From: Acidimicrobiia bacterium
GTDB taxonomy: Bacteria; Actinomycetota; Acidimicrobiia; Acidimicrobiales; Aldehydirespiratoraceae
Direction: 5' to 3'
Assembly: GCA_022819505.1 (NCBI GenBank)
Contig: JAJEHD010000018.1
Span: 627,663-691,662 of the forward strand
DNA: 64,000 nt
The notes under the pieces were generated by a model that made no database searches, was not told the origin of the DNA, and saw only the letters and a list, made by a program, of their open reading frames with translations. Both the position numbers and the translations under genes were made by a program. How positions within the stretch are numbered: the stretch's first letter is position 1; the number at the start of each line of letters is the position of its first letter. Of this stretch, positions 10,099 to 42,635 are shown one piece after another.

Positions 10099-10261
10099 GG
10101 CGCCTCCTGTGTGGGGTCTGTCTCGGGTTGGCGGCTGCGCCCCGGCCCGAGCCGATCTCCGATCACGCTCGATGCGCCCGCGTAGCCGGGGCGAGCATAG
10201 GGTTGTCGTCCGGTGAGCACCGCATCCTCCTCTCAGATTCCGGTGCGGGTCCGGTGACGCC

Positions 10262-11122
10262 GTGAAGCCCGCGGCCTTCGAGTATCACGCGCCCCGCACG
10301 CTGGAGGAGGCTCTCGGCCTACTGCACGAGCATCAGGACGAGGCCAAGGTCCTCGCCGGCGGCCAGAGCCTCGTGCCCGCCATGAACTTCAGGCTGGCCC
10401 GACCCGCGGTGCTGGTCGACATCGCCCATGTTCCCGGTCTCGACCGCATCGAGACGAACGACCCCGCCAGCGTCACCGTCGGTGCTCGGGTGCGCCACCT
10501 GGACCTGGAGCACAACACGATCGCGGGGCCGCTGGGCTCGCTGTTCGCCATGACGGGGCGGTGGGTGGGCCACTACCCGATACGGGTCCGGGGCACCTTC
10601 GGCGGGAGCCTGGCCCACGCCGACCCGGCCGCGGAGTGGTGCGCTCTGGCCAGCGCGCTCGACGCCGAGCTCCACTGCCGCAGCACCAGCGGTTCGCGCA
10701 CCGTGGGCGCCCGCGACTTCTTCGAACAGATGGCCTTCACGACCTGCCTGGAGCCCGACGAGCTGCTGGTCGGCGTGCGGCTGCCCAGGCTGAGCGATTC
10801 CTGCGGCGTCGGCATGGCCGAGTTCGCCCGCCGCTGGGGCGACTTCGCCATCGTGCTGGCGGTCACGGCCGTCGAACGCGACGGCGACTCGATCGCCCGT
10901 GCCCGCATCGCGCTCGGCGGCGTGGCCGGGGGGCCGGTGCGAGCATCCAACGCCGAGGCTGCCCTGGCCGGGCGTCCCGCGACGGCCGGGACGGTCGCGG
11001 AGGCCGCCGCGGCGGCGGCCGAGGAGGTCGATCCCACCGGCGACATCCACGGTTCGGCCGACTACCGCAGAGACCTTGTGCGGGCCATGGTGACCCGTGC
11101 GTTGGATCAGGCTCTGGCGTGA
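10262..11122 (+). CDS. Molybdenum-hydroxylase FAD-binding (medium, CoxM/XdhB-like) subunit
   Basis: 286 aa. MKPAAFEYHAP...VLAGGQSLVPAMNFRLARP...RGTFGGSLAHADPAAE...GSADYRR are CO dehydrogenase flavoprotein-family hallmarks. Confidence 0.9.
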   Translation: MKPAAFEYHAPRTLEEALGLLHEHQDEAKVLAGGQSLVPAMNFRLARPAVLVDIAHVPGLDRIETNDPASVTVGARVRHLDLEHNTIAGPLGSLFAMTGRWVGHYPIRVRGTFGGSLAHADPAAEWCALASALDAELHCRSTSGSRTVGARDFFEQMAFTTCLEPDELLVGVRLPRLSDSCGVGMAEFARRWGDFAIVLAVTAVERDGDSIARARIALGGVAGGPVRASNAEAALAGRPATAGTVAEAAAAAAEEVDPTGDIHGSADYRRDLVRAMVTRALDQALA

Positions 11123-11147
11123 TAATCGTGCGGGTGTGGAGGCCGGC

Positions 11148-13492
<2,345 letters not shown>

Positions 13493-13496
<4 letters not shown>

Positions 13497-13972
13497 GCCA
13501 GCGGCGCGTCGAGTTGACCCTGACCGTGAACGGCCAGCGGTACGAGGCGGCGGTGGAGCCCCGCAAGACCCTGGCCGACACCCTGCGAGAGGATTGCGGG
13601 CTAACCGGTACCCATCTCGGCTGCGAACACGGCGTGTGCGGCGCCTGCACCGTCCTGGTCGACGACGAGCCGGTGCGGTCCTGCCTCATGTTCGCGGTGC
13701 AGTGTGGCAGCCAGGCGATACGCACCGTCGAGGGACTCGCCGACGGCGACCGGCTGCATCCGATCCAGCAGGCCTTCTGGGAGCACCACGGCCTGCAGTG
13801 CGGCTTCTGCACTCCGGGGTTCCTGATGCTGGCCACGTCGGTGCTGGAGTCCCGTCCCGACATCGGCGACGAGGAGTTGCGGGAGGTGCTGGCGTCGAAC
13901 CTCTGCCGCTGCACCGGCTACCAGAACATCATCACGTCGGTGCACGCCGCCCGCGACCAGATGCGATCGTGA
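13493..13972 (+). CDS. Molybdenum-hydroxylase [2Fe-2S] small (CoxS-like) subunit
   Basis: Its ATG overlaps the L1 stop (ATGA). CEHGVCGACTV and GLQCGFCTPG...CRCTGY are the two 2Fe-2S cysteine clusters. Confidence 0.9.
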
Positions 13973-14006: not shown

Positions 14007-16298
14007 GTGATAGGCGAGTCGGTTCTCCGCCTCGAGGACCAGCCCCTGCTGCGGGGAGAGGGCCGCTTCGTCGCTGACATCAACCTCCCGCACCAGCTCC
14101 ACATGCGGATCGTGCGATCGCATGCGGCCCACGGCACGATCGAGTCGATCGACGCCTCGGGGTCCCTGGACGTGCCCGGCGTGGTCGCGGTCTGGACCGG
14201 CGCCGATGTGGCCGCCATCCCGCCCATCGACTTCAGGCAGGTGGGCGCCGACCAGATGGTTCCCTACCGCCAGCCGATCCTGGCCCAGGACCGGGTGCGC
14301 TACGTGGGCGAGCCCGTGGCCGCGGTGTTCGCGGTCGACCCGTACGTCGCCGAGGACGGCGCCGAAGCCGTGGTCGTGGAGGTGTCGGAACTGGCGCCGG
14401 TGCTCGACGCGGCCGGTCCACTCGGCGACTTCGACGGGCGGCTCGACACCGAGGCCTACGTGTTCACCGAGCAGACCGGCGATGTCGACGCGGCCTTCGC
14501 CCGGGCCGGGCACGTGTTGGAGGCCGAGTTCAGCGTGGGGCGCCACACCGGCGTGCCCCTGGAGTGCCGGGGTGCGGTGGCGGTGCACCACCGCAGCACC
14601 CGGACGCTCGAGTTCCTGGGGGCGGCCAAGGTCCCGTTCCAGAACCGTGATGCGCTGGCCAGGATGCTCGGCCTGCCGCCGTCGGGGGTCGTGCTGCGCG
14701 AAGCCCATGTCGGGGGTGGGTTCGGCGTGCGCGGCGAGCTGTATCCCGAGGATGTCCTGGTAGCGCTGGCCGCGTTGCGGATGGGCCGGCCGGTCAAGTG
14801 GATCGAGGACCGCCAGGAGCACCTCGTGGCGGCCAACCACTCCCGCGATCAGCGCTACCGGCTGCGGGTGGCCACCGACGCCTCGGGCGTGGTCGAAGGC
14901 CTCGACGTGGAGTTCGTCAGCGACCAGGGCGCCTACGTCCGCACCCACGGAGCCACGGTGGCAACTCTGGCCGCGGCCATGCTGCCGGGCCCGTACCGGA
15001 TCCCGAACTACCGCGTGACCGGCCGGGTGCGCCTGTCGAACAAGACCCCGGCGGGCACGTACCGGGCGCCGGGACGCTACGAGAGCACGTTCGTGCGGGA
15101 GCGGACGCTGGACGCCGTGGCCGCCGAACTCGGAATCGACCGGGCCGAGATCCGGCGACGCAACCTGATTGGCTCGGAGGCGATGCCGTTCGAGCGGGGC
15201 GTCGACGCGCTCGGAACACCGGTCGTCTACGACTCCGGGCAGTACGAGATGATGCTCGACCGGGTCATGGCCCACATCGACTACCGGGCCCTGATGGCGT
15301 CGCTGGCCGAACGCCGGGCGAACGGGGAGCTGGTCGGGCTGGGGCTCGGCTTCTTCGTCGAGAAGTCCGGCCTGGGTCCCTTCGCCGGGAGCCGGGTCGA
15401 GGTGGACCCGTCGGGCTGCGTCACGGTTACCACCGGCGAGGCCTCGGTCGGCCAGGGCTTCGAGACGGTGATGGCCCAGATCTGCGCGGAAGTCCTCAGC
15501 GTGGGGCTCGACACGGTCTCGGTGGTCCACGGCCAGACCGACCAGATGTCCTACGGGATGGGAGCCTTCGCCAGCCGGGCCACCGTGATGGCGGGGACCG
15601 CCACCCACGCCGCCGGCGTCTCCCTTCGTCGGCGGGCCATCGAGGTTGCTGCCGAGATGCTCGAGGCCAGCCCGGACGACCTGGAACTGCTCGATGGCGC
15701 CGTGAGAGTGGTCGGCTCGCCCACCCGGGCCGTGTCGCTGGGCGCCATCGCGTCGGCTCTCGGCCCGGCGTCGCCCCATGCGCAGGACCGGCCGGGACTG
15801 GTGGCCGAGGAGTGGTACACCACGAGCCACATGAACTACCCGTACGGCCTGCATGCCGGCGTGGTGGCGCTCGATCCCGACACCGGGAGCGTGGGGATCG
15901 AGCGGTACGTGATCGCCTACGACATCGGGCGGGCCATCAACCCGATGCTGGTGGAGGGCCAGATCGTCGGCGGCGCGGCCCAGGGCTTCGGCGGAGCGCT
16001 GTTCGAGGACTTCAGCTACGACGAGATCGGCCAGCCCCTGGTGACGACGTTCATGGACTACCTGATGCCCACCGCGGCAGAGATGCCCGACCTTGAGATC
16101 CTGCTGTCCGAGGACGCCCCCAGCCCGCTCAACCCGCTGGGCGTCAAGGGCGCCGGCGAGGGCGGCACCAACGCCTGCGGCGCGGTGATCGCTTCCGCGG
16201 TGGACGACGCCCTCGGCCGTCCCGGCGCGGTCTGCTCGTTGCCAATGACCCCCGAACGCCTACACACCCTCTGCCGGTCCGGCGGAGGGTCGCCCTAA
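14007..16298 (+). CDS. Second xanthine-dehydrogenase-family molybdopterin-binding large subunit (L2) with no FeS/FAD partners of its own
   Basis: 763 aa. MIGESVLRLEDQPLLRGEGRFVAD, GTYRAPGR loop, GVKGAGEGG. Confidence 0.9.
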   Translation: MIGESVLRLEDQPLLRGEGRFVADINLPHQLHMRIVRSHAAHGTIESIDASGSLDVPGVVAVWTGADVAAIPPIDFRQVGADQMVPYRQPILAQDRVRYVGEPVAAVFAVDPYVAEDGAEAVVVEVSELAPVLDAAGPLGDFDGRLDTEAYVFTEQTGDVDAAFARAGHVLEAEFSVGRHTGVPLECRGAVAVHHRSTRTLEFLGAAKVPFQNRDALARMLGLPPSGVVLREAHVGGGFGVRGELYPEDVLVALAALRMGRPVKWIEDRQEHLVAANHSRDQRYRLRVATDASGVVEGLDVEFVSDQGAYVRTHGATVATLAAAMLPGPYRIPNYRVTGRVRLSNKTPAGTYRAPGRYESTFVRERTLDAVAAELGIDRAEIRRRNLIGSEAMPFERGVDALGTPVVYDSGQYEMMLDRVMAHIDYRALMASLAERRANGELVGLGLGFFVEKSGLGPFAGSRVEVDPSGCVTVTTGEASVGQGFETVMAQICAEVLSVGLDTVSVVHGQTDQMSYGMGAFASRATVMAGTATHAAGVSLRRRAIEVAAEMLEASPDDLELLDGAVRVVGSPTRAVSLGAIASALGPASPHAQDRPGLVAEEWYTTSHMNYPYGLHAGVVALDPDTGSVGIERYVIAYDIGRAINPMLVEGQIVGGAAQGFGGALFEDFSYDEIGQPLVTTFMDYLMPTAAEMPDLEILLSEDAPSPLNPLGVKGAGEGGTNACGAVIASAVDDALGRPGAVCSLPMTPERLHTLCRSGGGSP

Positions 16299-20143: not shown

Positions 20144-21159
20144 TTCGGATTCCTGCCCACCCAGAACTCCTCGTCACCATCGTTGGTGACGTCGAGGCCG
20201 GCATCGACCGCGGCCTTGCGGATCATGCCCATCTGCGCCGCGTTGATGCGGGCCAGCGGTGCCCGGAGCGGCCCCCCGTTGAAGCCGACCAGCCAGCCCT
20301 GGTACTTCCAGATGCTCCGGGGCACCATCCCGGTGGTGGCCACGACGGGGCTGGCGGTGGCGCTGTTGGCCTTGCGGATGGGCGCGTTTCGCCAGTACAG
20401 GTCCATGCCGTCGTCCCAGGTGGCGGGATCGCTGAGCAGCTTGAGCATCTGGGGAACGCGGGGCCCGAAGGCCTCGTAGTTCGAGGTGCCCATGTACTTC
20501 ATGCCGTAGTGACGGATCCAGATCGGAGCGTTGTACTCCATGGGATCGGTCACGACGACCTGGTCGCCCAGGAGACGGAATACGTCGTCCATGCCTCCCG
20601 TGTAGGGCAGGCCGATCTCGTTCTTGATCCCCACCAGCATCGGACAGTCGGCCACCAGCCTCTCCAGCAGTCCCACCGGGAACGCGGCCGGGTGCAGTCG
20701 GGCGAAGTTCCACTGGTCGATCGCGAACAGCAGCACGCCCAGCGGCGAGCGGTCGATCATCGCCTTGCTGGCCTCGTAGAGCTCGTCGAGGGTGCGGGGG
20801 TAGAACGTCAGGGGGTAGGAGGGCAGCACCAGATCGGCCCCCAGCTCGGCGCCCCATTCGATGGTCAGCTGCTGTTCATCCCAGGTCGGCTGGGATGCCT
20901 GGACGACCACGACGAGGTCGCCGGCCGCGTCGGTGACGATCTCGAGCAGCCGCCGGTACTCCTCGAGCGCGGTGCCCCCCTCGCTGACGACCAGCACCGC
21001 TGCCATCCCGAGTTCCCGCTCCATCTCGACGTCGTGGCGGATGGCGACCTCGTTCAGCGTCGAGAGGTCGCTGGTGAAGGTGGGCAGGACGCAGCCGCAG
21101 CATCCCTTGAGATTCTCAAGAGCCCATGCCCGAGCCTCGGCTGCGGCGTACTCAGGCAT
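20140..21159 (-). CDS. DapA/DHDPS-family class I (Schiff-base) aldolase-like enzyme
   Basis: Frame of ORF 20140-21228. ATG 21159 is preceded by GGAGGG. VGIKNEIG contains the family's Schiff-base Lys position. Confidence 0.7.
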   Translation of the reverse strand: MPEYAAAEARAWALENLKGCCGCVLPTFTSDLSTLNEVAIRHDVEMERELGMAAVLVVSEGGTALEEYRRLLEIVTDAAGDLVVVVQASQPTWDEQQLTIEWGAELGADLVLPSYPLTFYPRTLDELYEASKAMIDRSPLGVLLFAIDQWNFARLHPAAFPVGLLERLVADCPMLVGIKNEIGLPYTGGMDDVFRLLGDQVVVTDPMEYNAPIWIRHYGMKYMGTSNYEAFGPRVPQMLKLLSDPATWDDGMDLYWRNAPIRKANSATASPVVATTGMVPRSIWKYQGWLVGFNGGPLRAPLARINAAQMGMIRKAAVDAGLDVTNDGDEEFWVGRNPK

Positions 21160-22102
21160 CCTGGATCCCTCCTGCCGGTTCGGCCGTCCGAGCAAGGAAT
21201 AGTCGCTCGGCATTGTGTCCGAGCACATTGGCTCGCTGCTCGTCGTTCAAGCCAAGTTCGTCCACGACGGCCAGGTGCCGCTGCACCGGCCACGGAATCG
21301 GCGGGCAGTCGGTGCCGAAGCAGATGTGCTCCGAGCCGACGGTCTCCAGGGCCATCCGCAGTGTCCGGCTCCCGAAGGTGACCGTGTCGAGGAAGAGCTT
21401 CTTGACGTGGCTCGACGGCGGCTCGGCCAGGTCCACCTCGCCCCATGGTCCCAGGGGGGCGTAGTTGCGCAGCTCGTGCCCGAAGTCGAGCCGATCGGCG
21501 ATGGTGGTGATGGCCCCGCCGGCGTGGGCGCAGAGCAGCCGGAGCTGCGGGAACTGCTCGTAGGTGCCGGTGAGGATGAAGCGGGCCAGCGTGACCGTCA
21601 TGTCCAGGGGGCGCCCGCACACCTCGCCCATGCGGTAGATGCCCATGAGGTCCTGGCCGACGGTCTGACCGCCGGGGTGCACGAAGATCGGTGCACCGAT
21701 GCTTGAGACGTAGTCCCAGAACCCGGCCGGGACACTGTCGAGATAGCAGTTCCGGTCGCTCGTGGGCAGAGCAAAGCCGGCCAGTCCGAGCTCTTCGGTG
21801 GCCCGCCGGGCCTCGTCGAGGTGCTCGGGGCCGCGCCAGGGGATCGCAGTGGCTAGACCGGCGAAGGTCCCCGGATGCTGGCGGGCCAGGTCTGCGACGA
21901 AGTCGTTGTAGGCGCGGACCTGCTCGATGTCGCCGGTGTCGAGGTCGCCGTACCAGATGTGAGGGTCGGAGACGATCGAGGTGGTGAGCCCGCCCTCCTC
22001 CATCCGTTCGAGCTGCCGGGGCACATCGAACAGATCGGGTGGCATGCGACCCTCCGGCTGCCATTGCGGAGGGAAGAGATGGACGTGACTGTCGACGATC
22101 AT
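21152..22102 (-). CDS. Amidohydrolase_2-family metal-dependent hydrolase/decarboxylase (ACMSD/IDCase-like)
   Basis: 316 aa. DSHVHLF (H-x-H), FVHPG, CAHAGG and FGTDCP are the metal-ligand pattern of the PF04909-type family. Confidence 0.8.
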   Translation of the reverse strand: MIVDSHVHLFPPQWQPEGRMPPDLFDVPRQLERMEEGGLTTSIVSDPHIWYGDLDTGDIEQVRAYNDFVADLARQHPGTFAGLATAIPWRGPEHLDEARRATEELGLAGFALPTSDRNCYLDSVPAGFWDYVSSIGAPIFVHPGGQTVGQDLMGIYRMGEVCGRPLDMTVTLARFILTGTYEQFPQLRLLCAHAGGAITTIADRLDFGHELRNYAPLGPWGEVDLAEPPSSHVKKLFLDTVTFGSRTLRMALETVGSEHICFGTDCPPIPWPVQRHLAVVDELGLNDEQRANVLGHNAERLFLARTAEPAGGIQDA

Positions 22103-22121
22103 GAGCTATGCCTCCCCTGGG

Positions 22122-24386
22122 TCATGCTCGCCTCGGGCGGTGCAGGGCGTGCCATAGGCGGGCCGAGCTCACCGAGCTGGTGAGCACCTCGGCCCCGTCA
22201 CCGACGGCGTCGGCTACGCCGTTGGCGACCGCGCCGAGTGAGCCGACCATCCCGGCTTCGCCGCCGCCCTTGATGCCGAGCGGGTTGGATCCGCTGCCGT
22301 GCTCGATGATGGTGACCTCCACGTCGGGCAGCTCGGCCGCGGTGGGCATCATGTAGTCGGCGAAGGTCACCGACAGCGGCTGGCCGTGCTCGTCATACGC
22401 GACCTCCTCGAACAGCGCTCCACCGATGCCCTGCGCGGCGGCGCCCGCCAGCTGGCCCCGGAGGAGCCGCGGGTTGACGGCTCGCCCCACGTCATGGGCC
22501 AGCGCGAACCGGTCCACCCGGGCCCTGCCGTCGGCCGGGTTCACCGACACCGAGCACACCGCCCCCCCGAAGGAGGCGGTCAGCCCCTCCTTCTCGAACC
22601 GGCCGCGGGTGGGACCGATGTCGCCGAGCCCAACCGATCGGTCGCCCGGCGCGGTCGCGGTGCCGTCGCGGAACTCGACGTCGCCGGGCCCGCATCCGAG
22701 GAGCGGCGCGGCCTTGGCTTTCATCTCGTCGACTGCAGCCGCGATGGCGTTCCCGGCCAGCACGGTGGAACGGCTGGCGAAGGACCCGAAGCCCTGCGGC
22801 ACCTCGGCAGTGTCATGGAACTCGACGGTCACGCCGCTGAGAGGCACGTCGAGAAGCTCGGCCGCGATCTGAGCCAGCGCCGTCTCGACGCCCTGGCCCA
22901 GCGATCCGACACCGGCCCGAACGACGACATTCCCCGCGCCACCGATCACCTCGACCTCTTCGAATGGTCCGACCGCGGCGAACTCGATGTAGGCCGCGAT
23001 GCCGACGCCGGCATGCTGTCCATCGGCTCGCGCCTGTCGCTGCTCGACCCGCATCCGGTCGTAGCCGGCCCCGTCGAGCATCTGATCGAAGGCCGTAACG
23101 AAGTCGCCGCCCTGGTACATGATCGGCATCACCGCCCCCGAACCGGGTCCCGGCATGAAGCTGAACGGCATCGACTCGGCCGGAATCAGGTTGCGGCGCC
23201 GCAGGTCGGCCGGCTCCATCTCCAGCTCGGCCGCGAGGATGTCGACCATGCGCTCGCGGACAAACGTGGCCTCGGTCATGCCCGGGCCGCGGTAGGTGCC
23301 GACCGGAGTGCGGTTCGTCAGCACCGCGTCTAGATCCATGCTGAACGCCGGCCACTCATACGGGCCGGGAAGGTGGACCATGGGGAGCACGACCGGCAGC
23401 AGGCCCTGGGTCCTGACGTAGGCGCCGTGATCGCACCATCCCCGTACCCGGAAACCCAGCATCCGGCCGTCGGCGCCGGCCGCCAGCTCGAAGTCGTGCT
23501 CCTGTTCCCGGGCATGGTTGGTGGCGACCATGTGCTCCCAGCGGTCCTCGATCCACTGGACGGGCCTCTCGAGGCGCCGGGCCAGCAGCGGGATGAGGAT
23601 GTCCTCGGGGTAGGGCTCGCCACGCGTCCCGAACCCGCCCCCCACTTCAACCTCGATGACGCGGACGTCGGTCAGCTCGAGCCCCAGCACGCGGCTCAGC
23701 AGGGCCCGGGTGAAGTGCTTGACCTTGGCGCCGCCCCACACCGTGAGCACCCCTGATCCGGGGTCGTAGTCAGCCGCCAGTCCGCGGGTCTCCATCGGCG
23801 CCGCGGCGAGGCGATGGACTCGCAACCGGCGGCGAACCACCACGTCGGCCCGCGCGAACGCCGCGTCGATGTCCCCGTAGCGGTAGGCGAGACGGCCGAT
23901 GGTGTTGCTTCCGAAGCTCTCGTGCACCAACGGCTGGGAGGACTCCGTCGAGTTGGCTGGATCGAGGACCGGCTCCAACTCGTCGAGATCGATGGAGACG
24001 AGTTCGGCCGCGTCCTCGGCCACATAGGGGTCATCGGCCACGACCACCGCGACCGGTTCGCCGACGTAGCGGACGACATCGGCGGCCAAGGGTGCCTGCA
24101 GCACCGCGTTGGCCTCGGGCGACTCGGCGAACGGGAGCCGGATCGGTATCCGGATGTCGTCGATGTCGTCGGCGGTGATGACCGCCACGACGCCACCGAC
24201 CCGGAGGGCCTCGGAAGTGTCGACGCCGAGCAGCCGGGCGTGGGCCGACGGGCTCCGCACCACCCGGGCGTACACCTGGCCCTCGAGCCGGATGTCGGCC
24301 ACGTAGGTTCCTTCGCCGGTGAGCAGCTCCCGGTTCTTGCGCCTGGGCGCGGGGCTGCCTATGAGTCCACCGCCGGGAGCGCTCAC
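22122..24386 (-). CDS. Xanthine-dehydrogenase-family molybdopterin-binding large subunit (L3)
   Basis: Frame of ORF 22122-24512. GTG 24386 overlaps the medium-subunit stop (GTGA). LLTGEGTYVADI, GTYRGPGM loop, GIKGGGEAG. Confidence 0.9.
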   Translation of the reverse strand: MSAPGGGLIGSPAPRRKNRELLTGEGTYVADIRLEGQVYARVVRSPSAHARLLGVDTSEALRVGGVVAVITADDIDDIRIPIRLPFAESPEANAVLQAPLAADVVRYVGEPVAVVVADDPYVAEDAAELVSIDLDELEPVLDPANSTESSQPLVHESFGSNTIGRLAYRYGDIDAAFARADVVVRRRLRVHRLAAAPMETRGLAADYDPGSGVLTVWGGAKVKHFTRALLSRVLGLELTDVRVIEVEVGGGFGTRGEPYPEDILIPLLARRLERPVQWIEDRWEHMVATNHAREQEHDFELAAGADGRMLGFRVRGWCDHGAYVRTQGLLPVVLPMVHLPGPYEWPAFSMDLDAVLTNRTPVGTYRGPGMTEATFVRERMVDILAAELEMEPADLRRRNLIPAESMPFSFMPGPGSGAVMPIMYQGGDFVTAFDQMLDGAGYDRMRVEQRQARADGQHAGVGIAAYIEFAAVGPFEEVEVIGGAGNVVVRAGVGSLGQGVETALAQIAAELLDVPLSGVTVEFHDTAEVPQGFGSFASRSTVLAGNAIAAAVDEMKAKAAPLLGCGPGDVEFRDGTATAPGDRSVGLGDIGPTRGRFEKEGLTASFGGAVCSVSVNPADGRARVDRFALAHDVGRAVNPRLLRGQLAGAAAQGIGGALFEEVAYDEHGQPLSVTFADYMMPTAAELPDVEVTIIEHGSGSNPLGIKGGGEAGMVGSLGAVANGVADAVGDGAEVLTSSVSSARLWHALHRPRRA

Positions 24387-25246
24387 GGGCCGGCTCCCAG
24401 TCTTCTCAAGGCGCGCTCGACCAGGTGCGATACGAGCGCTTTGCGATAGGTGCCGTCGGCGTGCCAGTCGCCGGCGTCCGGGTGGCAGGTCTCCGCGGCC
24501 AGCCGGGCGCACTCGACGATCGCGGTGTCGTCGAGGAACGAGCCCGACAGCGCCTGCTCGGCGTCACGGGCCCGTACCGGCGTCGGGCCGACGCTCCCGA
24601 GGGCGATCCTCACGTCGCGGGCCAATCCGTCGGTGGCCAGCCGGCACCCGGCGGCCACCGAGGCGTAGGCGAAGTCACCGACTCGGGGGCTGAACTCCTC
24701 GAACACCGACCGGAACCCCGTCCCCGGCGTAGGGAACCGGGCCTCGACCAGGACCTCGTCGGGATCGGCCGCTGTGGTCAGCGGGGCCAGGAAGAAGTCG
24801 CGGGCAGGCACCGTGCGGACACCCCGGAGGCTCCTGAGGACGATCTCCGCGTCGAATGCGGCGGCCACCACACCGAGTTCGCCGGCAGGGTCGGCATGGG
24901 ACAGGCTCCCGCCGAAGGTGCCTCTGACCCTTATCGGCAGGTGGCCAATGAGCGAGGCCGCCTCCCGGAGGGCTTGCCATCCGCCGCTGAGATCGGCCCG
25001 CTCGAGCGTCGCGTGCCGGACGAGCGCGCCGACGCACAGGCTGCCGTCCTGCTCTTCAAGGATGTCGAGCCCCTCAACCCCGCCGATGTCAATGAGGTGG
25101 CTGGGCCGGGCCAGCCTGAAGGCCAGCAACGGCAGCAGGCTCTGGCCGCCGGCCAGCAGCTTGGCGTCCTCTCCGGCCTCATCGAGAAGGGCGACGGCTT
25201 CGTCGAGCGTGCCAGCCGCCGCGTAGGCGAAAGGAGGAGGCTTCAC
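24383..25246 (-). CDS. Molybdenum-hydroxylase FAD-binding medium subunit (second set)
   Basis: Frame of ORF 24383-25423. GTG 25246 overlaps the small-subunit stop (GTGA). VKPPPFAYAAA...LLAGGQSLLPLLAFRLARP...RGTFGGSLSHADPAGE. Confidence 0.9.
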   Translation of the reverse strand: MKPPPFAYAAAGTLDEAVALLDEAGEDAKLLAGGQSLLPLLAFRLARPSHLIDIGGVEGLDILEEQDGSLCVGALVRHATLERADLSGGWQALREAASLIGHLPIRVRGTFGGSLSHADPAGELGVVAAAFDAEIVLRSLRGVRTVPARDFFLAPLTTAADPDEVLVEARFPTPGTGFRSVFEEFSPRVGDFAYASVAAGCRLATDGLARDVRIALGSVGPTPVRARDAEQALSGSFLDDTAIVECARLAAETCHPDAGDWHADGTYRKALVSHLVERALRRLGAGP

Positions 25247-25740
25247 GGGTCGTCCCGGTTCGCGGCCAGAGCGTTCAGAGCAGCTTGAAACACGGGCACC
25301 GCACCGGTGCAGCGGCACAGATTCGAGGAGACCACCTCCAGGATCCGGTCCCGTCCCGCCTCCGGTTCGGAGCGCAGCAGGCCCTCGATCAGCATGAGGA
25401 AACCGGGTGTGCAGAACCCACACTGCAGGGCGTCGTTGTCGTCGAAGGCCTGCTGCAGGGTGCTGAGTTCGTCGCCGTCAGTGAGGCTCTCGACCGTCTC
25501 TATGGTGTGGCCCTGCCCCTGGACGGCCAGCATCAGGCACGAGCGGACGGCGGCGCCGTCCAGCAGGATCGTGCAGGATCCGCACACGCCGTGCTCGCAG
25601 CCGAGGCGCACGCTGGTGAAGCCGGCGTCGCGCAGAGCGTCGGCCAGGGTCCGCCTGGGCGGGACGCGAACCTTCCGTGGCGCGCCGTTCACGGTCAGGG
25701 TGACGGCAACCGAATCATGGGGGTCGAGCCATCCAGCCAT
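25243..25740 (-). CDS. Molybdenum-hydroxylase [2Fe-2S] small subunit (second set)
   Basis: 165 aa. CEHGVCGSCTI and ALQCGFCTPG...CRCTG. Confidence 0.9.
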   Translation of the reverse strand: MAGWLDPHDSVAVTLTVNGAPRKVRVPPRRTLADALRDAGFTSVRLGCEHGVCGSCTILLDGAAVRSCLMLAVQGQGHTIETVESLTDGDELSTLQQAFDDNDALQCGFCTPGFLMLIEGLLRSEPEAGRDRILEVVSSNLCRCTGAVPVFQAALNALAANRDDP

Positions 25741-25747
25741 CAGGCGG

Positions 25748-26755
25748 TCACGCCGAGACGGCAGCGCGGTCCGCGAGGTCTCGCAGGAGCTTCCGGTAGG
25801 CGATCGATCCGGAGTCGGCCAGCTTGAGGTGCAGCTCCTCGCGGGGGTCGAGGGGCAGCTCGGCCGGGTCCTGAGCCTCGACCACGATGCGGTCCTGCTC
25901 CATCACATCGTGGAAGCCGGCCCCGAAGTCGGCGTCGGAAGTGTCGAAGGAGTGGTTGCGCGACAGCCATGAGAAGATGCGGGTCTCGGCCCGGTCGGTG
26001 GGTGAGGCGATGAACGTGATGGTGGTGATGTCGCCGGCCTTCGACTCGCCCTGCTCGGACCAGGTCACGCCGCCGCTTACGGCCACGACCGACTTGCGGT
26101 CGTGCAGGGTGAAGGGCAGGTGCAGCGTGTAGTCCCGCAGCAGCACGCTGTCGTCATAGGCGTACCTCATACCGTCGTCGGTGACCGTGACCTCGAAGGG
26201 CTTGATGAACGCTCCGTCGGCCAGTTCGGTGAAGCCCTCGTGCACGAAGTTGAAGTGGGCGAAGTCGATGGCGTTCTCCAGCATCCGCCCCGCGGACGAC
26301 TGCCAGCGCCAGGTGCCTACCAGGAACACATGCCAGTCGTCGCTGTTCCAGTCGTCGTCGGGCCACGGGGGCAGATCGGCCACCGGTTCGTCGGGCGCGA
26401 CCCACACCGCACCGTGGTCCTCGCGTACGTGGTAGCGATGGACGCGGGCCTGGCTCGGGATGGCGCCGCCGGCTCCCAGTGCGGGGATGAACGCCACCTT
26501 GCCGGTGCGGTCGTACTGCCAGCCGTGGTAGGGGCACATCAGGCGCCCGTCGCGGATGCAACCCCCCGACAGCGCCACGCCCCGGTGCACGCACTTGTCC
26601 CGCAGCGCCACCAGTCCCTCGTCGTCGCGGTATAGCACGATGGCCTCGCCCAGCAGCCTCACCTGCATGGGCTCGGTTGTGACCTCTTCGGAGACCGCGA
26701 CCGGATGCCAGTAGTGCCTGAGCGCCTGTTCGAAGAGGTGTGCCTGGTCGAGCAT
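25748..26755 (-). CDS. Alpha-only Rieske non-heme-iron oxygenase (VanA/PobA/KshA-like monooxygenase or demethylase)
   Basis: Internal ATG 26755 of ORF 25748-27007 (MLDQAHLFEQALRHYWHPV). Rieske motif CVHRG...CPYHGW and Fe motif DFAHFNFVH. Confidence 0.85.
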   Translation of the reverse strand: MLDQAHLFEQALRHYWHPVAVSEEVTTEPMQVRLLGEAIVLYRDDEGLVALRDKCVHRGVALSGGCIRDGRLMCPYHGWQYDRTGKVAFIPALGAGGAIPSQARVHRYHVREDHGAVWVAPDEPVADLPPWPDDDWNSDDWHVFLVGTWRWQSSAGRMLENAIDFAHFNFVHEGFTELADGAFIKPFEVTVTDDGMRYAYDDSVLLRDYTLHLPFTLHDRKSVVAVSGGVTWSEQGESKAGDITTITFIASPTDRAETRIFSWLSRNHSFDTSDADFGAGFHDVMEQDRIVVEAQDPAELPLDPREELHLKLADSGSIAYRKLLRDLADRAAVSA

Positions 26756-26789
26756 CGGCTTTCCCCCGTCTGGGTGAGGTCTACATGAA

Positions 26790-27896
26790 TCAGGGCGCCT
26801 TGGACATGTCCACGATGGCGGCGACCATGCCACCGCCCGCGGGACCCTGCTGGAGGGCCGCCACCGAGCAGTACACGGCCGGATCCCCGATGGCGGCGGC
26901 CGCCACCGCACCGACCGCGCCCTTGGTGTGGTGGGTGTGGTGGATGTCGGAGTCGTTGATCGACACGAGCCGGCGACCCCGCAGCCGCCCCGACGGGTCG
27001 GTCTCACACTTGATGAAGCAGTTCACGACGGCATCCCCCAGGTCGCTGGGATGGGGTCGGTCGGGCAGGTCCAGCCCGGCCGAGCGGATGGCGTCGTAGA
27101 TCCCGTCGAAGTCGAGGGCGTCGCGCATGACCGAATGGCCGATGCGGAAGTCGCCGCCGGCGCCGGCCCTGTTGCCGACCACCACGATCTGGGCGGGGTC
27201 CTGCTCGACGCCCGACGAGCAGGACGCCACCGACGAGTACAGGTCGAGATCCGCGGCGATCTGCTCGGGGCGGGGAAGATCGAACTCGCCGACGGCATAC
27301 CCGATGCCGAGCGCGGCGGTGGCGTTGGACACCGCCATCGACTCCATAGTGTCGGTCATCACCACGTCCTTGCCCCGGCTGCGGGCGTCCTCGATGCGCT
27401 CCCGGGTCAGCAGCGGGGTCTTGGACTGCACGAAATGGACGTCGGCGGGGTCGGTGATGCCCGCGTCGGCCATCGCCACCCGCACGCCCTCGGCCACCTT
27501 CTCCACCATCGGCAGCCGGCCGATCTCCTCGGGCAGGATCGCCTCCGACATCGTCACGCCCACCGCCAGCCGCTTCTCGTCGCCGGCGCTGCCGTTACCC
27601 GGAACCCGGGCGAAGACATTCATGTGGGGCGCGATCACGCCGTCGGTGCCGCCGGACCACACGATGGGCATGCGGTCGATCTCCGACGGTGACCGGGTTC
27701 CGTGCGTGTTCAGGAAGTCACGGAAGACGCGGTCGGCCAGGATGCGGGAGAAGTCGTTGACCCCGCCGTTGCCCTCGGTCTTGCCGATCACGCCGATGAT
27801 CTGATCGGCGGTGAACGAGCCGGCCTCGATCTCGGCCAGCAGCCCGCCCATGTCGCTGACGAACTCGAAGGGGATCTTGCGTACAACGATGGGCAT
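26790..27896 (-). CDS. Ring-opening amidohydrolase of the cyanuric acid hydrolase (AtzD/TrzD) / barbiturase family
   Basis: 368 aa. Recalled family blocks are all present and in order: GKTEGNGGVND, VWSGGTDGVIAPH, HFVQSKTPLLT, SMAVSNATAALG, CFIKCETDPSG, NDSDIHHTHHTKGA, QQGPAGGG. Confidence 0.85.
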   Translation of the reverse strand: MPIVVRKIPFEFVSDMGGLLAEIEAGSFTADQIIGVIGKTEGNGGVNDFSRILADRVFRDFLNTHGTRSPSEIDRMPIVWSGGTDGVIAPHMNVFARVPGNGSAGDEKRLAVGVTMSEAILPEEIGRLPMVEKVAEGVRVAMADAGITDPADVHFVQSKTPLLTRERIEDARSRGKDVVMTDTMESMAVSNATAALGIGYAVGEFDLPRPEQIAADLDLYSSVASCSSGVEQDPAQIVVVGNRAGAGGDFRIGHSVMRDALDFDGIYDAIRSAGLDLPDRPHPSDLGDAVVNCFIKCETDPSGRLRGRRLVSINDSDIHHTHHTKGAVGAVAAAAIGDPAVYCSVAALQQGPAGGGMVAAIVDMSKAP

Positions 27897-35681: not shown

Positions 35682-36650
35682 ATGAGCAACGCATTACGCC
35701 AGTACTGGCACCCGGTAGCGGCCGTCGAGGAGCTTGACGGCGGTCCGATCAAGACCACCCTCCTCGACGAGGACCTGGTCGTGTTCCGCTCCGGCGGCGA
35801 GATTCACGCCCTGCAGGACCTGTGCATCCACCGGGGCACGCCCCTGTCGCTCGGTTCGGTGAACGCCGACGGTTGCATCGTGTGCCCCTACCACGGCTGG
35901 ACCTACGACACCGACGGCAAGTGCGTCCACATCCCGTCGCAGCCGCCCGACCGCCAGCGGATCCCGTCGCAGGCGAGGGTGCCCGCCTACCGGACCTCGG
36001 AGCACTACGGGCTGGTCTATGTGGCGCTTGAGGATCCGGTCGCCCCGGTGCCGGAGTTCCCCGAGTTCTACGACGAGGGGTTCAACATGATCCGGCCGGG
36101 CGAGTGGACGTGGAATGCCAGCGCGGCCCGTTTCGTGGAGAACGCCATCGACACGTCGCACCTTCCGATCGTGCATCCGGGTCTGCTGGCCGATCCCTCG
36201 GCCACCGTCATCGCACCCTTCGACATGGAGGAGACCGACCGTGGCTACGCCTTCTCGGCCAGGCGCCACGATGTGGACGAGGCCATGTTCGGTGACGCCG
36301 ACGAGCTGGTCACCCAGAAGACGTGGGTGGAAATCCCCTTCAGCTGGCGCCTGCTGATTACCGCCGAGTCCCAGAGCACGGTGGTGTTCATCGCCAACCA
36401 GCCGATCTCCCTCAAGAAGGTCCGCTTCTGGGAGTTCGTCGGCATCAAGGGCAGCCAGGACCAGACCGACGACGAGATCATCGCCTTCCACCAGAAGGTC
36501 ATCGAGCAGGACCGCCACATAGTCGAGAACCAGCGACCCGAGATGCTGCCGCTGGACATCACCGCAGAACTGCATCTCAGAGTGGCCGACGAGCCCGCGC
36601 TCGAATACCGGCGCCGTCTCGCGGCGGTGGCCGGCGCCGAGTACGCCTGA
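35682..36650 (+). CDS. Alpha-only Rieske non-heme-iron oxygenase (VanA/PobA-like), paralogue of 25748-26755
   Basis: 322 aa. Rieske motif CIHRG...CPYHGW and Fe motif DTSHLPIVH. Confidence 0.85.
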   Translation: MSNALRQYWHPVAAVEELDGGPIKTTLLDEDLVVFRSGGEIHALQDLCIHRGTPLSLGSVNADGCIVCPYHGWTYDTDGKCVHIPSQPPDRQRIPSQARVPAYRTSEHYGLVYVALEDPVAPVPEFPEFYDEGFNMIRPGEWTWNASAARFVENAIDTSHLPIVHPGLLADPSATVIAPFDMEETDRGYAFSARRHDVDEAMFGDADELVTQKTWVEIPFSWRLLITAESQSTVVFIANQPISLKKVRFWEFVGIKGSQDQTDDEIIAFHQKVIEQDRHIVENQRPEMLPLDITAELHLRVADEPALEYRRRLAAVAGAEYA

Positions 36651-36691
36651 GGGCAGCCCGCAATTCACATCAAGCAAAGGAGCGCTTCCCC

Positions 36692-37951
36692 ATGCCGACC
36701 GCGATGAGCCTGGAGTGGCCCACCGACGACTTCAGCCGGATCCCGTTCGCGGCGTACCTCGACGAGGACATCTACGTGGAGGAGCAGGAGCGGATCTTCC
36801 GTGGTCCCGTCTGGTCGTACCTGGCCCTCGAGGCCGAGATCCCCAACACCGGCGACTTCATCACCACCTACGTGGGCGACACGCCGGTGCTGGTCAACCG
36901 CCAGCGCGACGGCCAGGTCTCGGCGTTCGTGAACCGCTGCATGCACCGGGGCTCGATGCTCAAGCGCGAGTGCCGGGGCAACGCCACCATGCACACCTGC
37001 CTCTACCACCAGTGGGCCTACGACCTCACCGGCCAGCTGCGGGCGGTGCCGTTCGCCAAGGGACACATGGGACGGGGCGGTCTGCCGCCGGACTTCGACA
37101 TCAAGTCGGTGAAGCTGACGTCGATGCGGGTGGAGAGCTACCAGGGCGTGCTGTTCGGGACGTTCTCCGACGAGACCGAACCGCTGGTCGACTACCTCGG
37201 CGACAACGTGCGGGCCGAGCTCGACCGGGTCTTCAACCGGCCCATCAGCCTGCTCGGCTACCAGCGCCAGCGCATCCTCGGCAACTGGAAGCTCTACAAC
37301 GACAACGTGCGGGACCCGAACCACGGGGCGTTGCTTCACATGTTCCACGCCACCTTCGGCCTGTACCGGCCCACCCAGCGCGGCGGGGTGAAGATGGACG
37401 ACCGTCACCGCCACAACATCAGCTACTCCATGATGGGCACCAGCGACGACGACGCCGACGCCGAGGCGTTCGCCGGAACCCAGAAGGTCTTCGACAAGGG
37501 ATTCCGCCTCGAGGACCCGTCGATGCTGCAGTACGACAAGGAGTATCCCGACGACGTGTCGCTGACCATCCTGTCGATCTTCCCCAACATGGTGATGCAG
37601 CAGATCACCAACAGCCTCTGCACCCGCCAGATCCAGACCCGCGGTCCAGGCGAACTGGAGCTGTACTGGACCTACTTCGGCTACACCGACGACGACGAGA
37701 AGATGACCCAGCATCGCCTCAACCAGGCCAACCTGGTCGGACCGGGCGGGCTGATCTCCATGGAGGACGGCGAGGCGGTCGAGATGGTCCATCGGGCGGT
37801 GAAGCGCGAGCAGGACGAGCACGGCATCGTCGAGATCGGCGGCAAGGGCGAGATCGCGGACCACGACTACCTCGTGACCGAGATCCCGATCCGGGGGTTC
37901 TGGTCGTACTACTACGAGCTGATGTGCATCGAGGCAGAGCAGGCGGCCTGA
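36692..37951 (+). CDS. Rieske ring-hydroxylating dioxygenase alpha subunit (second system)
   Basis: ATG 36692 follows AAAGGAG. Rieske motif CMHRG...CLYHQW and Fe motif DPNHGALLH. Confidence 0.9.
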   Translation: MPTAMSLEWPTDDFSRIPFAAYLDEDIYVEEQERIFRGPVWSYLALEAEIPNTGDFITTYVGDTPVLVNRQRDGQVSAFVNRCMHRGSMLKRECRGNATMHTCLYHQWAYDLTGQLRAVPFAKGHMGRGGLPPDFDIKSVKLTSMRVESYQGVLFGTFSDETEPLVDYLGDNVRAELDRVFNRPISLLGYQRQRILGNWKLYNDNVRDPNHGALLHMFHATFGLYRPTQRGGVKMDDRHRHNISYSMMGTSDDDADAEAFAGTQKVFDKGFRLEDPSMLQYDKEYPDDVSLTILSIFPNMVMQQITNSLCTRQIQTRGPGELELYWTYFGYTDDDEKMTQHRLNQANLVGPGGLISMEDGEAVEMVHRAVKREQDEHGIVEIGGKGEIADHDYLVTEIPIRGFWSYYYELMCIEAEQAA

Positions 37952-38424
37952 TGGGCTCAGGGAGTGAGCGCGACGCCGTAGTGGCGTTGATGATCGACTA
38001 TGTGCACCTGATCGACGAGGACCGGCTCGAGGACTGGGTCGAGCTGTTCACCGACGACTGCACCTACAAGATCCTGTCGCGGGAGAACGTCGATGCCGGC
38101 TACCCCCTGGAGCTCCTGTCGTGCCACAACAAGGGCATGCTGCGCGACCGGGTGGTGTCGCTGAGAGAGGCCAACCTCTACAACCTCCACACCGACAAGC
38201 ACGTGCTGGGCATGGTCCGGACGCACCAGGAGAGCGACGGCGTGTGGACCGCCCAAGCCAACTTCTCGCTGTACCAGTCGACCCTCGACGGGGAGACCGA
38301 CCTCTTCGCGGTCGGGACCTACCGTGACCGGGTGGTCTTCGACAACGGCCAGCCGCTGTTCGCGGAGAAGATCGTCGTCAACGACACCTTCGCGGTGGCC
38401 AGGATGCTCTCAACCCCGATCTGA
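37951..38424 (+). CDS. Rieske ring-hydroxylating dioxygenase beta subunit (second system)
   Basis: The ATG shares 1 nt with the alpha stop (TGATG). NTF2-like sequence: DYVHLIDEDRLEDWVELFTDDCTY. Confidence 0.85.
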   Translation: MGSGSERDAVVALMIDYVHLIDEDRLEDWVELFTDDCTYKILSRENVDAGYPLELLSCHNKGMLRDRVVSLREANLYNLHTDKHVLGMVRTHQESDGVWTAQANFSLYQSTLDGETDLFAVGTYRDRVVFDNGQPLFAEKIVVNDTFAVARMLSTPI

Positions 38425-38457: not shown

Positions 38458-39198
38458 CTACTCCTGCCAGCGCTTGTAGCGGGGGTCGTCCTCGAAGAAG
38501 GCCCGGTACATGCCGTCGAAGGCCAGCCACTGCAGGTCGATGCTGCGCCGGACCGCGTTCCACACCCGGGTGCGGGTGTAGTCGTCGTTGGCGTAACGGC
38601 GCACGATGGCGGGCCCGATGTCGCCGTGGTCCTCCTCGATTTCCGAGGCGTGGATCTCCCAGTAAGTAAGCCCCTCGGAGCCCTTGGTGTAGCCGTAGTC
38701 CTTTACGAACGACTCGATCAGCATGTCGTTGCGCTTGGCCGAGGCGCCCTCGATGAAGGCGATTCCGGCGATGGCCGCGATCCAGTCGCCCTTGAACGCG
38801 TTGAAGTAGCGCCACTGCTCGAAGGCGGCCGTCTCCGGTATGGCGTCGGTCGCCATCATCTCCTCCGCGGACAGACCGAGGGTGGCGCACCAGTTGAAGT
38901 AGATCTGGAGGTGGTGGCCGGTGCCCGAGTGGCTGCCGGTGGCCTCCTCCATCAGCACGTCGCCGAACCACAGGTGCTCGATGTCGGGGTCGCCCTCCGG
39001 CGCGTAGGCGTACACCGCGCAGTGCGGCCTCGGGTTGGGCTTGGGCCCCACGAAGAAGAACTGCCTGGCGAAGCCCCGCAGGGACCTGCGGGAGGCGTTC
39101 CCCTCGCAGATGGCGCTGACCAGCGGGTGGAACTTGATGTGCTCAGCCTCGACGGTCTCGTCGATGCGTCGCAGGAGGTCGTCGGTTTCTGCAGACAT
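38458..39198 (-). CDS. Heme-oxygenase-like fold protein (TenA/PqqC / iron-containing redox enzyme family), possible diiron oxidase
   Basis: 246 aa, all-helical. Candidate carboxylate/His ligands lie in LMEEATGSHSGTGHH, FIEGAS and EIHASEIEEDHGD. Confidence 0.6.
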   Translation of the reverse strand: MSAETDDLLRRIDETVEAEHIKFHPLVSAICEGNASRRSLRGFARQFFFVGPKPNPRPHCAVYAYAPEGDPDIEHLWFGDVLMEEATGSHSGTGHHLQIYFNWCATLGLSAEEMMATDAIPETAAFEQWRYFNAFKGDWIAAIAGIAFIEGASAKRNDMLIESFVKDYGYTKGSEGLTYWEIHASEIEEDHGDIGPAIVRRYANDDYTRTRVWNAVRRSIDLQWLAFDGMYRAFFEDDPRYKRWQE

Positions 39199-39270
39199 GG
39201 GGCGGCACCATAGCGGTACCGGCGAGCACGCTCATGGTCGGGCTGCGCCCAAGGGCGCCTCCCGGTTCGA

Positions 39271-40122: not shown

Positions 40123-40163
40123 GGCGCGGACCGCCGCCGGGGAAGGGGTCTCAACGGCGATAC

Positions 40164-42620: not shown

Positions 42621-42635
42621 ACGAAGGGGTTGCGG

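Follow-up and report, generated by a model that had tools for sequence, protein, structure and literature searches.

We analysed a window of 64,000 nt (the whole stretch of DNA considered here, with a G+C content of about 69-70%) from an uncultured member of the Acidimicrobiales, in which the gene of a barbiturase homologue lies inside a large operon for Rieske oxygenases, a molybdenum (Mo) hydroxylase and ring-cleavage enzymes. The initial annotation had singled out six minus-strand genes at 21152-27896 as one module. These six genes were found exactly there, to the base, but the interval cuts through a longer operon, of which ten further genes had been overlooked. The operon comprises 16 genes on the minus strand, runs from position 32684 to 16302, and starts with the gene of a substrate-binding protein and ends with that of an extradiol dioxygenase (Table 1). 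Gaps between its co-directional genes range from -11 to +79 nt. From the LivF-like ATPase gene, which overlaps the LivG-like gene by 4 nt and directly adjoins the barbiturase start, to the gene of the beta subunit of a ring-hydroxylating dioxygenase (RHO), the spacing is 0, 34, 7, -4, -4, 19, -11, -4, 20, and -4 nt. The two GTGA overlaps reported between the genes of the small and medium (S/M) and of the medium and large (M/L) hydroxylase subunits are both present (...cccGTGAgc and ...cccGTGAag), the GTG start lying over the preceding TGA stop. Judged by gene spacing, the region 32684-16302 thus forms one apparent transcription unit.

Table 1. Genes of the operon and of the gene sets on either side of it (positions refer to the 64,000-nt window).
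Feature	Position	Strand	Evidence
LIV/HAAT-type periplasmic substrate-binding protein, 430 aa	31392-32684	-	Peripla_BP_6, 148 bits
LivH-like ABC permease, 289 aa	30443-31312	-	BPD_transp_2; synteny kept
LivM-like ABC permease, 330 aa	29419-30411	-	BPD_transp_2
LivG-like ABC ATPase, 259 aa	28631-29410	-	ABC_tran + BCA_ABC_TP_C
LivF-like ABC ATPase, 245 aa	27897-28634	-	ABC_tran
Barbiturase-clade ring-opening amidohydrolase (AtzD/TrzD/barbiturase family), 368 aa	26790-27896	-	PF09663, 437 bits; TIGR02714, 456 bits
Alpha-only Rieske monooxygenase, VanA/NdmA type, 335 aa	25748-26755	-	Rieske + VanA_C
Mo-hydroxylase small [2Fe-2S] subunit (S), 165 aa	25243-25740	-	Fer2 + Fer2_2
Mo-hydroxylase medium FAD subunit (M), 287 aa	24383-25246	-	FAD_binding_5 + CO_deh_flav_C
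Mo-hydroxylase large molybdopterin subunit (L, MoL), 754 aa	22122-24386	-	Ald_Xan_dh_C + MoCoBD_1/2
Amidohydrolase_2, ACMSD/LigW/IDCase decarboxylase group, 316 aa	21152-22102	-	PF04909, 89 bits
X, putative NAL/DHDPS-fold Schiff-base lyase, 340 aa	20140-21162	-	Homologue profile, AF2 model + Foldseek
OCD, ornithine cyclodeaminase/mu-crystallin-family NAD(P) enzyme, 325 aa	19166-20143	-	PF02423
RHO alpha, 449 aa	17796-19145	-	Rieske + Ring_hydroxyl_A
RHO beta, 183 aa	17248-17799	-	Ring_hydroxyl_B; 4-nt overlap with alpha
Two-domain type I extradiol dioxygenase, 305 aa	16302-17219	-	Glyoxalase x2
Module C, second Mo-hydroxylase set M2-L2-S2-L3	10217-16298	+	Pfam, tblastn; convergent with operon
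M2 (member of module C)	10217-11122	+	
L2 (member of module C)	11094-13496	+	
S2 (member of module C)	13493-13972	+	
L3 (member of module C)	14007-16298	+	
Second VanA/NdmA-type Rieske	35682-36650	+	Pfam; divergent from module A
RHO-alpha-like gene	36692-37951	+	Pfam; divergent from module A
SnoaL/RHO-beta-like gene	37951-38424	+	Pfam; divergent from module A

For the comparisons below, the locus was divided into three modules. Module A consists of the LIV-type ABC importer, the barbiturase homologue and the NdmA/VanA-type Rieske oxygenase, together with the divergently transcribed second Rieske/RHO pair. Module B contains the S-M-L hydroxylase, the amidohydrolase_2 enzyme, X, OCD, RHO alpha-beta, and the extradiol dioxygenase. 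Module C is the M2-L2-S2-L3 set. The start of the LivG-like gene was set at MDLVLDAV, following a 259-aa orthologue in another contig (L081).

The label of barbiturase homologue proved correct. The best solved relative of the protein is the Rhodococcus erythropolis barbiturase (5HWE) with 450 bits, whereas cyanuric acid hydrolases reached about 300 bits or less. In an alignment of 121 sequences it shares 59.8% of its residues with 5HWE and 47.0% with the Moorella cyanuric acid hydrolase, and the residues of the Ser-Lys dyads K39/S81, K159/S225-228 and K296/S344 as well as E231 are invariant. The functional role of these dyads has been described (PMC4051656). Asn191, Cys226, Ser228 and Val345 are common to the window protein and the barbiturase, and the Moorella enzyme differs at these positions. 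Position 191 is occupied by Arg in the latter and by Asn in 118 of 118 homologues aligned. Cho et al. (PMC4051656) reported that the domain-B Arg is conserved in all cyanuric acid hydrolase subgroups but two and is lost in the barbiturase subgroup, for which they named Gln, although their register may differ slightly from that of our alignment at Asn191. On sequence grounds, the AtzD-family ('Toblerone-fold') protein is a member of the barbiturase clade rather than a cyanuric acid hydrolase, and hydrolysis of barbiturate is predicted.

The protein also passes the NCBIfam equivalog NF052395, 'cyanuric acid amidohydrolase' (417.8 bits, cut-off 360). This match does not discriminate, because the validated barbiturase 5HWE passes the same model with 478 bits. 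Both proteins score higher on TIGR02714 than on NF052395, and the reverse holds for a true cyanuric acid hydrolase. The call of a cyanuric acid hydrolase was therefore rejected, on account of the behaviour of 5HWE and of the missing domain-B Arg, one of three substrate-binding Arg residues, which is replaced by Asn. It follows from the score of 5HWE that the use of NF052395 in automated annotation will mislabel barbiturase-clade proteins as cyanuric acid hydrolases.

The S/M/L proteins have the organization of heterotrimeric hydroxylases of the xanthine oxidase family, with separate subunits for two [2Fe-2S] clusters, FAD and Mo, encoded by GTGA-coupled genes. L carries the motifs GGGFG at residue 249 and GGGEAG, with the catalytic Glu, at residue 707. 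Its best solved relative is KdhL, the large subunit of 6-hydroxypseudooxynicotine dehydrogenase (7DQX, 514 bits), followed by CoxL (381 bits) and Qor (365 bits), and it reached no NCBIfam equivalog. Form I CO dehydrogenase was rejected for L, since the loop reads GTYRGPG and not AYxCSFR and TIGR02416 yielded 427 bits against a cut-off of 991. The names CO dehydrogenase and glyceraldehyde dehydrogenase were discarded for S/M/L as a whole, all scores being far under the NCBIfam cut-offs and the loop motif being wrong. A Streptomyces large subunit with 59% identity to L (L084) has none of the accessory genes in its neighbourhood. A scan of metagenomes with L added only three orthologues; the other 76 loci contain L3-like paralogues without the accessory genes.

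Module C, in the order M-L-S-L, has two large subunits with a single FAD and a single Fe-S subunit. Four related contigs (L083, L087, L093, and L094) have lost the S and M genes of module B. L still follows the Rieske gene there at a distance of 66-77 nt and S2 is found nearby, as is M2 in those of these loci (the 73-75% identity group) that reach far enough. The preserved position of L despite the loss of S and M suggests, as far as gene order can tell, selection on gene order and on shared subunits. Hence, the three catalytic large subunits may share one pair of electron-transfer subunits.

The Rieske oxygenase encoded at 25748-26755 had been described as an alpha-only enzyme next to the Mo-hydroxylase. 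The architecture (Rieske plus VanA_C) and the position upstream of S, from which the gene is separated by 7 nt, agree with this description, and the closest relatives can now be specified as NdmA, the methylxanthine N1-demethylase (133.7 bits), and SxtT, both at about 134 bits. Its translation shows CxH...CxxH and ENAIDFAHFNFVH motifs. Methyl C-hydroxylation, as in the p-toluenesulfonate methyl-monooxygenase TsaM, is equally possible for this enzyme. The second Rieske oxygenase of this type (35682-36650) is 37% identical to the first, and it is kept with the ABC-barbiturase unit even where the Mo-hydroxylase module is missing (L001, L002). The entire divergent Rieske/RHO set at 35682-38424 is retained beside this unit in L001, L002, L083 and L085. 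With these genes, the island at 9150-44750 encodes four Rieske oxygenases and a P450 but no recognised ferredoxin or ferredoxin reductase, so that electrons must be supplied from another part of the genome. The substrate-binding protein of the importer is 85-98% identical across the syntenic loci. Its relatives in the PDB gave no lead to the ligand, as they are only generic Leu/Ile/Val- or amide-binding proteins.

For the amidohydrolase_2 enzyme, a likeness to iso-orotate decarboxylase (IDCase) had been proposed. The family holds (PF04909, the group of ACMSD, LigW and IDCase), whereas the specific assignment to IDCase was ruled out, because among PDB entries LigW (70.2 bits) and ACMSD (66.4 bits) outscore IDCase (52.9 bits). 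No NCBIfam equivalog was matched. The translation displays DSHVH (HxH), VHP, AHAGG and GTDCP motifs, which would hold the metal ligands as in the ACMSD group.

X alone has no Pfam match. A profile built from 28 homologues matches DHDPS and NAL, and an invariant Lys180 aligns to the Lys of the DHDPS motif KDATG, presumably the Schiff-base Lys. An AF2 model (pLDDT 88.9) compared by Foldseek matched NAL, DHDPS, KDG dehydratase and PhdJ about equally (TM ~0.72). Assignment of X as a hydratase-aldolase of the NahE/PhdJ type was therefore dropped, since the fold search could not tell PhdJ from the other three. OCD has its best NCBIfam match, under the cut-off, in the delta1-pyrroline-2-carboxylate reductase family and is always paired with X, including in two metagenome contigs (L088, L089). 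This pairing hints at cyclic imino-acid chemistry. In the two contigs, X-OCD is accompanied by genes for an amidohydrolase_2, a glyoxalase-fold protein, a Mo-hydroxylase, a PF04199 cyclase (formamidase-like), an isochorismatase-like protein, and hydantoinase A/B. These gene sets suggest a wider, uncharacterised core of N-heterocycle degradation. The best solved relative of RHO alpha is the naphthalene dioxygenase of Rhodococcus (2B1X, 285 bits), and the matches of the extradiol dioxygenase to the NCBIfam models for HpaD and catechol 2,3-dioxygenase remained under the cut-offs.

A scan for the barbiturase family, covering one genome per species, revealed the closest locus in the metagenome-assembled genome OZ220709, with 93% protein identity. 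Modules A, B and C occur together in an identical order in the window and seven contigs, which share 73-94% identity in MoL: 94% in L081, 82% in L086, 78% in L085 (a Tara Oceans scaffold), 75% in L094, 74% in L087 and L093, which may be the same sequence, and 73% in L083. The importer, barbiturase and Rieske genes are located directly upstream of L in the window and in all of these contigs. Among the contigs with enough flanking sequence, the window included, 8 out of 9 contain the linkage barbiturase-Rieske-(S-M-)L. Module C follows downstream in convergent orientation, as seen in the gene lists of the window, L081, L083, L085, L086 and L087 and by tblastn matches to L3 in L093 and L094. Its recurrence in seven further contigs shows that this gene order is not due to chance. 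The modules are also found separately. L001 and L002 contain only module A, in the form of a complete operon, module B occurs without a barbiturase in L082 (MoL 85% identical), and L003 has orthologues of the module C type (about 60% identical) next to a barbiturase gene but lacks module B.

Clustering of the neighbours of 80 barbiturase loci gave a different picture of the gene in other genomes. The most common neighbour is a carbamate-kinase-like gene (42 of 80 loci), followed by AllF/AllG/AllH-like genes for subunits of oxamate carbamoyltransferase. An M-S-L Mo-hydroxylase is present in two groups of loci. In one it directly follows Bar-AllH-AllF-AllG, and in the other (Geodermatophilus, Modestobacter, Blastococcus, Klenkia, and Streptomyces) a xanthine/uracil permease accompanies it or lies close by. 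Loci with these recurrent neighbours are L012, L013, L055, L058 and L061-L063; L029, L056, L059, L069, L079 and L080; and L090. The last of these came from a scan of a plasmid collection, which returned two unannotated actinobacterial replicons, of which only that of Embleya (NZ_CP108785) was informative. Its layout is AA_kinase-Bar...M-S-L, its barbiturase shares 75% identity with the validated one, and its large subunit is 69% identical to that of Geodermatophilus.

The window L shares only 28-36% identity with the large subunits that accompany barbiturase elsewhere. Against those of pattern 2 (L029, L056, L080, and L090) it scored 220-293 bits, the lowest of the three large subunits of the window, while L3 reached 336-459 bits. 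A neighbour-joining tree, which is rough and carries no support values, likewise sets L apart from them. The S/M/L genes had been read as part of a candidate module resembling the classical oxidative pyrimidine route. They are not orthologous to the barbiturase-linked M-S-L sets, and S/M/L is probably not the classical uracil/thymine dehydrogenase. In the window, representatives of AA_kinase, AllG and FdrA gave no tblastn match, and no window gene matched the Pfam families Xan_ur_permease, AllG/AllH or AA_kinase. The literature searched contained no gene assignment for uracil/thymine dehydrogenase (EC 1.17.99.4) or ureidomalonase, in agreement with the initial remark that the dehydrogenase lacks a defined gene set.

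The M-S-L sets beside barbiturase in Embleya, Streptomyces and Geodermatophilaceae are better candidates for this dehydrogenase than the window S/M/L. Permease, M-S-L hydroxylase, barbiturase, AllFGH-like carbamoyltransferase and carbamate kinase together represent a candidate for the orphan oxidative-pyrimidine gene set of cultured Actinobacteria. By analogy with oxalurate, ureidomalonate in such loci would be cleaved phosphorolytically and not by ureidomalonase. The comparison makes the old question of the dehydrogenase directly testable in cultured strains.

For the window itself, the reading that we favour, with a probability of about 0.45, is that the operon and the two flanking gene sets make up a supercluster, conserved in uncultured Acidimicrobiales, for the catabolism of at least one N-heteroaromatic compound, with a lower and an upper module fused together. 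Starting from gene content, family assignments, the barbiturase-clade residues, operon spacing and the conserved synteny, we infer all substrates, the sequence of reactions, and a passage of metabolites from modules B and C to the barbiturase. In the lower module A, the LIV-type transporter would import the compound, the NdmA/VanA-type Rieske monooxygenases would strip methyl substituents or hydroxylate the ring, and the barbiturase homologue would open the resulting 2,4,6-trioxopyrimidine (barbiturate-type) ring, yielding a product of the ureidomalonate type. The occurrence of module A alone as a complete operon fits the expectation for a lower pathway. In modules B and C, up to three catalytic subunits of Mo-hydroxylases could add oxo groups beside ring nitrogens or oxidise aldehydes, and the naphthalene-dioxygenase-like RHO and the extradiol dioxygenase may open a second ring. 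X might then release or process a 2-oxo-acid fragment, the ACMSD/LigW-type enzyme might take off a carboxyl group, and the OCD-type enzyme might handle an imine. The net effect would be the trimming of a complex heterocycle, possibly a fused or substituted pyrimidinedione, to a substrate of the barbiturase.

A more specific version of this proposal is rather doubtful. It holds that these uncultured, partly marine Acidimicrobiales possess an undescribed pathway in which barbiturase would carry out the terminal ring opening of a fused or substituted pyrimidinedione, not of uracil or thymine, after trimming to barbiturate by the Rieske oxygenases, the subunit-sharing Mo-hydroxylases, RHO and extradiol dioxygenase, and the ACMSD-type decarboxylase. 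Candidate substrates would be N-methylated uracils or barbiturates, or benzo- or pyrazino-fused diones of the quinazolinedione, lumazine or alloxazine type.

Several observations weigh against the supercluster proposal. The substrate cannot be named from sequence. No enzyme for the product of the barbiturase was recognised in the window, neither a ureidomalonase candidate nor AllFGH nor a carbamate kinase. A dihydrodiol dehydrogenase is absent from the operon, the nearest SDR gene lying at about 42.6-43.4 kb, and no ferredoxin- or ferredoxin-reductase-type domain was found among the genes annotated by Pfam between 9 and 45 kb. Its fold leaves X compatible with a hydratase-aldolase as well as with an imino-acid deaminase or a dehydratase. 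Furthermore, since modules A and B each occur alone, a flow of metabolites between them is not required for either to persist, and the sets of X-OCD, amidohydrolase_2, glyoxalase and Mo-hydroxylase in L088 and L089 do without a barbiturase.

The same separate occurrence of module A without B (L001, L002) and of B without A (L082) feeds the main rival, namely that two unrelated pathways are merely co-transcribed. Module A would then serve a small pyrimidine such as a methylated uracil or barbiturate, and modules B and C a pyridine- or quinoline-type carboxylate (for instance picolinate-like, or an N-methylated form such as homarine) in the manner of the pic pathway, S/M/L acting like PicA, RHO alpha-beta like PicB and the amidohydrolase_2 enzyme like PicC, with no metabolite passing from S/M/L to the barbiturase. 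The relationship of L to hydroxylases of pyridine and quinoline rings (KdhL, Qor) points in this direction, as do the use of the same three enzyme families in sequence by pic, where picA usually adjoins picB, and the X-OCD core of L088 and L089, in which the formamidase-like cyclase and isochorismatase-like genes are typical of pyridine-ring routes. Such a coincidence of two routes is unlikely, however, in view of the tight barbiturase-Rieske-(S-M-)L order in 8 of 9 contigs at 73-94% identity of L. In addition, module B has no transporter of its own, and genes of the maleamate pathway of the PicD, PicE, PicF or PicG type are absent among the recognised window genes.

The pyrimidine-type reading of the initial annotation stands in part. 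The barbiturase clade, the co-directional Rieske and S/M/L genes and the conserved linkage support it, and the clade of S/M/L, the identity of the IDCase-like enzyme and the failure to find ureidomalonase, AllFGH or permease genes do not. In its strict form, in which S/M/L is a dehydrogenase of uracil, thymine or 5-substituted uracils, the Rieske oxygenase acts on the methyl group and an IDCase-like 5-carboxyuracil decarboxylase precedes barbiturase, it is quite improbable and the least supported of the three, next to the supercluster and the two co-transcribed pathways. A barbiturase-clade enzyme does share an apparent transcription unit with S/M/L subunits that have complete two-[2Fe-2S]/FAD/Mo domain sets and conserved motifs. 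Moreover, the amidohydrolase_2 enzyme counts IDCase among its significant relatives (53 bits), the closest relative of the Rieske oxygenase, NdmA, has the pyrimidinedione ring of methylxanthines as its target, and the place of EC 1.17.99.4 was still free of genes in the literature searched. Against this, barbiturase is linked elsewhere, including in Embleya, to a different M-S-L clade, often with a xanthine/uracil permease, and the importer of the window is of the LIV type and not a nucleobase permease. S/M/L travels with RHO, extradiol dioxygenase, NAL-fold lyase and OCD, none of which a monocyclic pyrimidine route needs, and both LigW and ACMSD outscore IDCase. Very improbable indeed is mineralisation of an s-triazine by a cluster whose AtzD-family enzyme is a cyanuric acid hydrolase. 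The NF052395 match would fit such a function, but 5HWE passes this model too and prefers TIGR02714 as the window protein does, and the domain-B Arg is an Asn in the latter. Moreover, general scans, without a dedicated search, gave no match to the families expected for biuret hydrolase, allophanate hydrolase or triazine deaminases.

Barbiturase has so far been treated as a rare enzyme of the three-step uracil/thymine route. Its presence, as a barbiturase-clade enzyme, in a large conserved Rieske/Mo-hydroxylase operon suggests that the breakdown of heterocycles other than uracil also converges on barbiturate-type rings. All enzyme families involved are known; a barbiturase within a 16-gene Rieske/Mo-hydroxylase/extradiol operon of uncultured Acidimicrobiales is not described in the literature searched. 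One of the related contigs (L085) stems from a Tara Oceans assembly.

Around the operon, the wider island at about 9-45 kb also contains genes for a cupin, RidA, PNPOx-like and luciferase-like flavoenzymes, two alpha/beta-hydrolases, Amidohydro_1, CMD, glyoxalase, SDR, and P450. Several of them lie in a catabolic-looking block at 38458-44731, which codes for a Haem_oxygenas_2 iron enzyme, an alpha/beta-hydrolase, Amidohydro_1, CMD, glyoxalase, SDR and P450. Outside the island, the 2-kb bin 6001-8000 has an AT skew of -0.355, compared with |0.12| or less in all others, and carries two plus-strand MFS transporter genes. On either side, the region is flanked by a PIN-domain gene (691-1155, minus strand) and a DUF222/HNH endonuclease gene (50618-52141, plus strand). 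At 52398-57241, genes like those of DNA gyrase/topoisomerase IV subunit A and of gyrase B have open frames that overlap by about 360 nt.

The oxidative pyrimidine route of R. erythropolis JCM 3132 proceeds from uracil/thymine dehydrogenase (EC 1.17.99.4) over barbiturase (EC 3.5.2.1) to ureidomalonase (EC 3.5.1.95), according to Soong et al. (2001/2002) as cited in PMC3758960 and PMC4051656. The window resembles it in that a barbiturase-clade enzyme, which shares its active-site substitutions with the solved one, is genetically linked to a Mo/FAD/Fe-S hydroxylase of several subunits. In contrast, this hydroxylase is not of the clade that accompanies barbiturase in other Actinobacteria, uptake relies on a LIV-type ABC transporter instead of a nucleobase permease, and no ureidomalonase-type, AllFGH or carbamate-kinase genes were recognised. 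The classical three steps also leave no role for ten further genes of the window (among them those for the Rieske oxygenases, extradiol dioxygenase, lyase, reductase, and decarboxylase).

Individual enzymes find their counterparts in other systems. With Kdh (7DQX) and quinoline 2-oxidoreductase Qor (1T3Q), the window hydroxylase shares the S/M/L subunit organization, GGGFG, and the catalytic-Glu motif. Nevertheless, L is orthologous to neither, since identity within its own group of orthologues goes down to about 72% and then drops to 60% or less in the next relatives, and the gene contexts differ. The alpha-only Rieske plus VanA_C architecture is common to the window enzyme, NdmA/NdmB (6ICK, 6ICL) and SxtT/GxtA. 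NdmA and NdmB are two paralogues, as are the two Rieske oxygenases of the cluster. The similarity is modest, though, N-demethylation by the window enzyme is putative, and no NdmD-type reductase was recognised near the cluster. The upper pathways of naphthalene and phenanthrene degradation also use a dioxygenase to which RHO alpha is closest, an extradiol dioxygenase, and an enzyme of the NAL/DHDPS fold, X having a putative Schiff-base Lys and PhdJ among its structural matches. Unlike these pathways, the operon has no dihydrodiol dehydrogenase or isomerase, and X resembles NAL, DHDPS and KDG dehydratase as closely as PhdJ and is paired with OCD.

Two further gene clusters come close in their combination of enzymes. 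The pic cluster of Alcaligenes faecalis JQ135 encodes PicA1A2A3, PicB1-4 and PicC, picA usually being adjacent to picB (bioRxiv 10.1101/530550). At family level only, both systems combine a three-subunit Mo dehydrogenase, an alpha-beta Rieske hydroxylase, an amidohydrolase_2 decarboxylase and subsequent ring-cleavage dioxygenation. They differ in that the window would cleave the ring by a type I extradiol (glyoxalase-fold) enzyme, possesses in addition the NAL-fold lyase and OCD, and is fused to a barbiturase module; genes of the PicD, PicE, PicF and PicG type were not recognised in the window. The Lum operon for riboflavin/lumichrome in Nocardioides simplex (PMC12746152) dismantles a fused N-heterocycle with a pyrimidinedione ring. 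It has in common with the window a hydroxylase of the xanthine oxidase family, a Rieske alpha-beta dioxygenase, and an extradiol dioxygenase, with a P450 and several hydrolases nearby in both. The Lum pathway itself was rejected for the window, since Lum attacks the pyrimidine ring first, through the hydrolases LumH, LumI and LumM and a thiamine-pyrophosphate-dependent decarboxylase, has no barbiturase, and employs a Mo enzyme made of a single polypeptide, while no thiamine-pyrophosphate enzyme is encoded in the window. The enzyme logic proposed here has proven precedents in both, in pic for the succession of Mo-hydroxylase, Rieske oxygenase and amidohydrolase_2, and in Lum for that of xanthine oxidase, Rieske oxygenase and extradiol dioxygenase.

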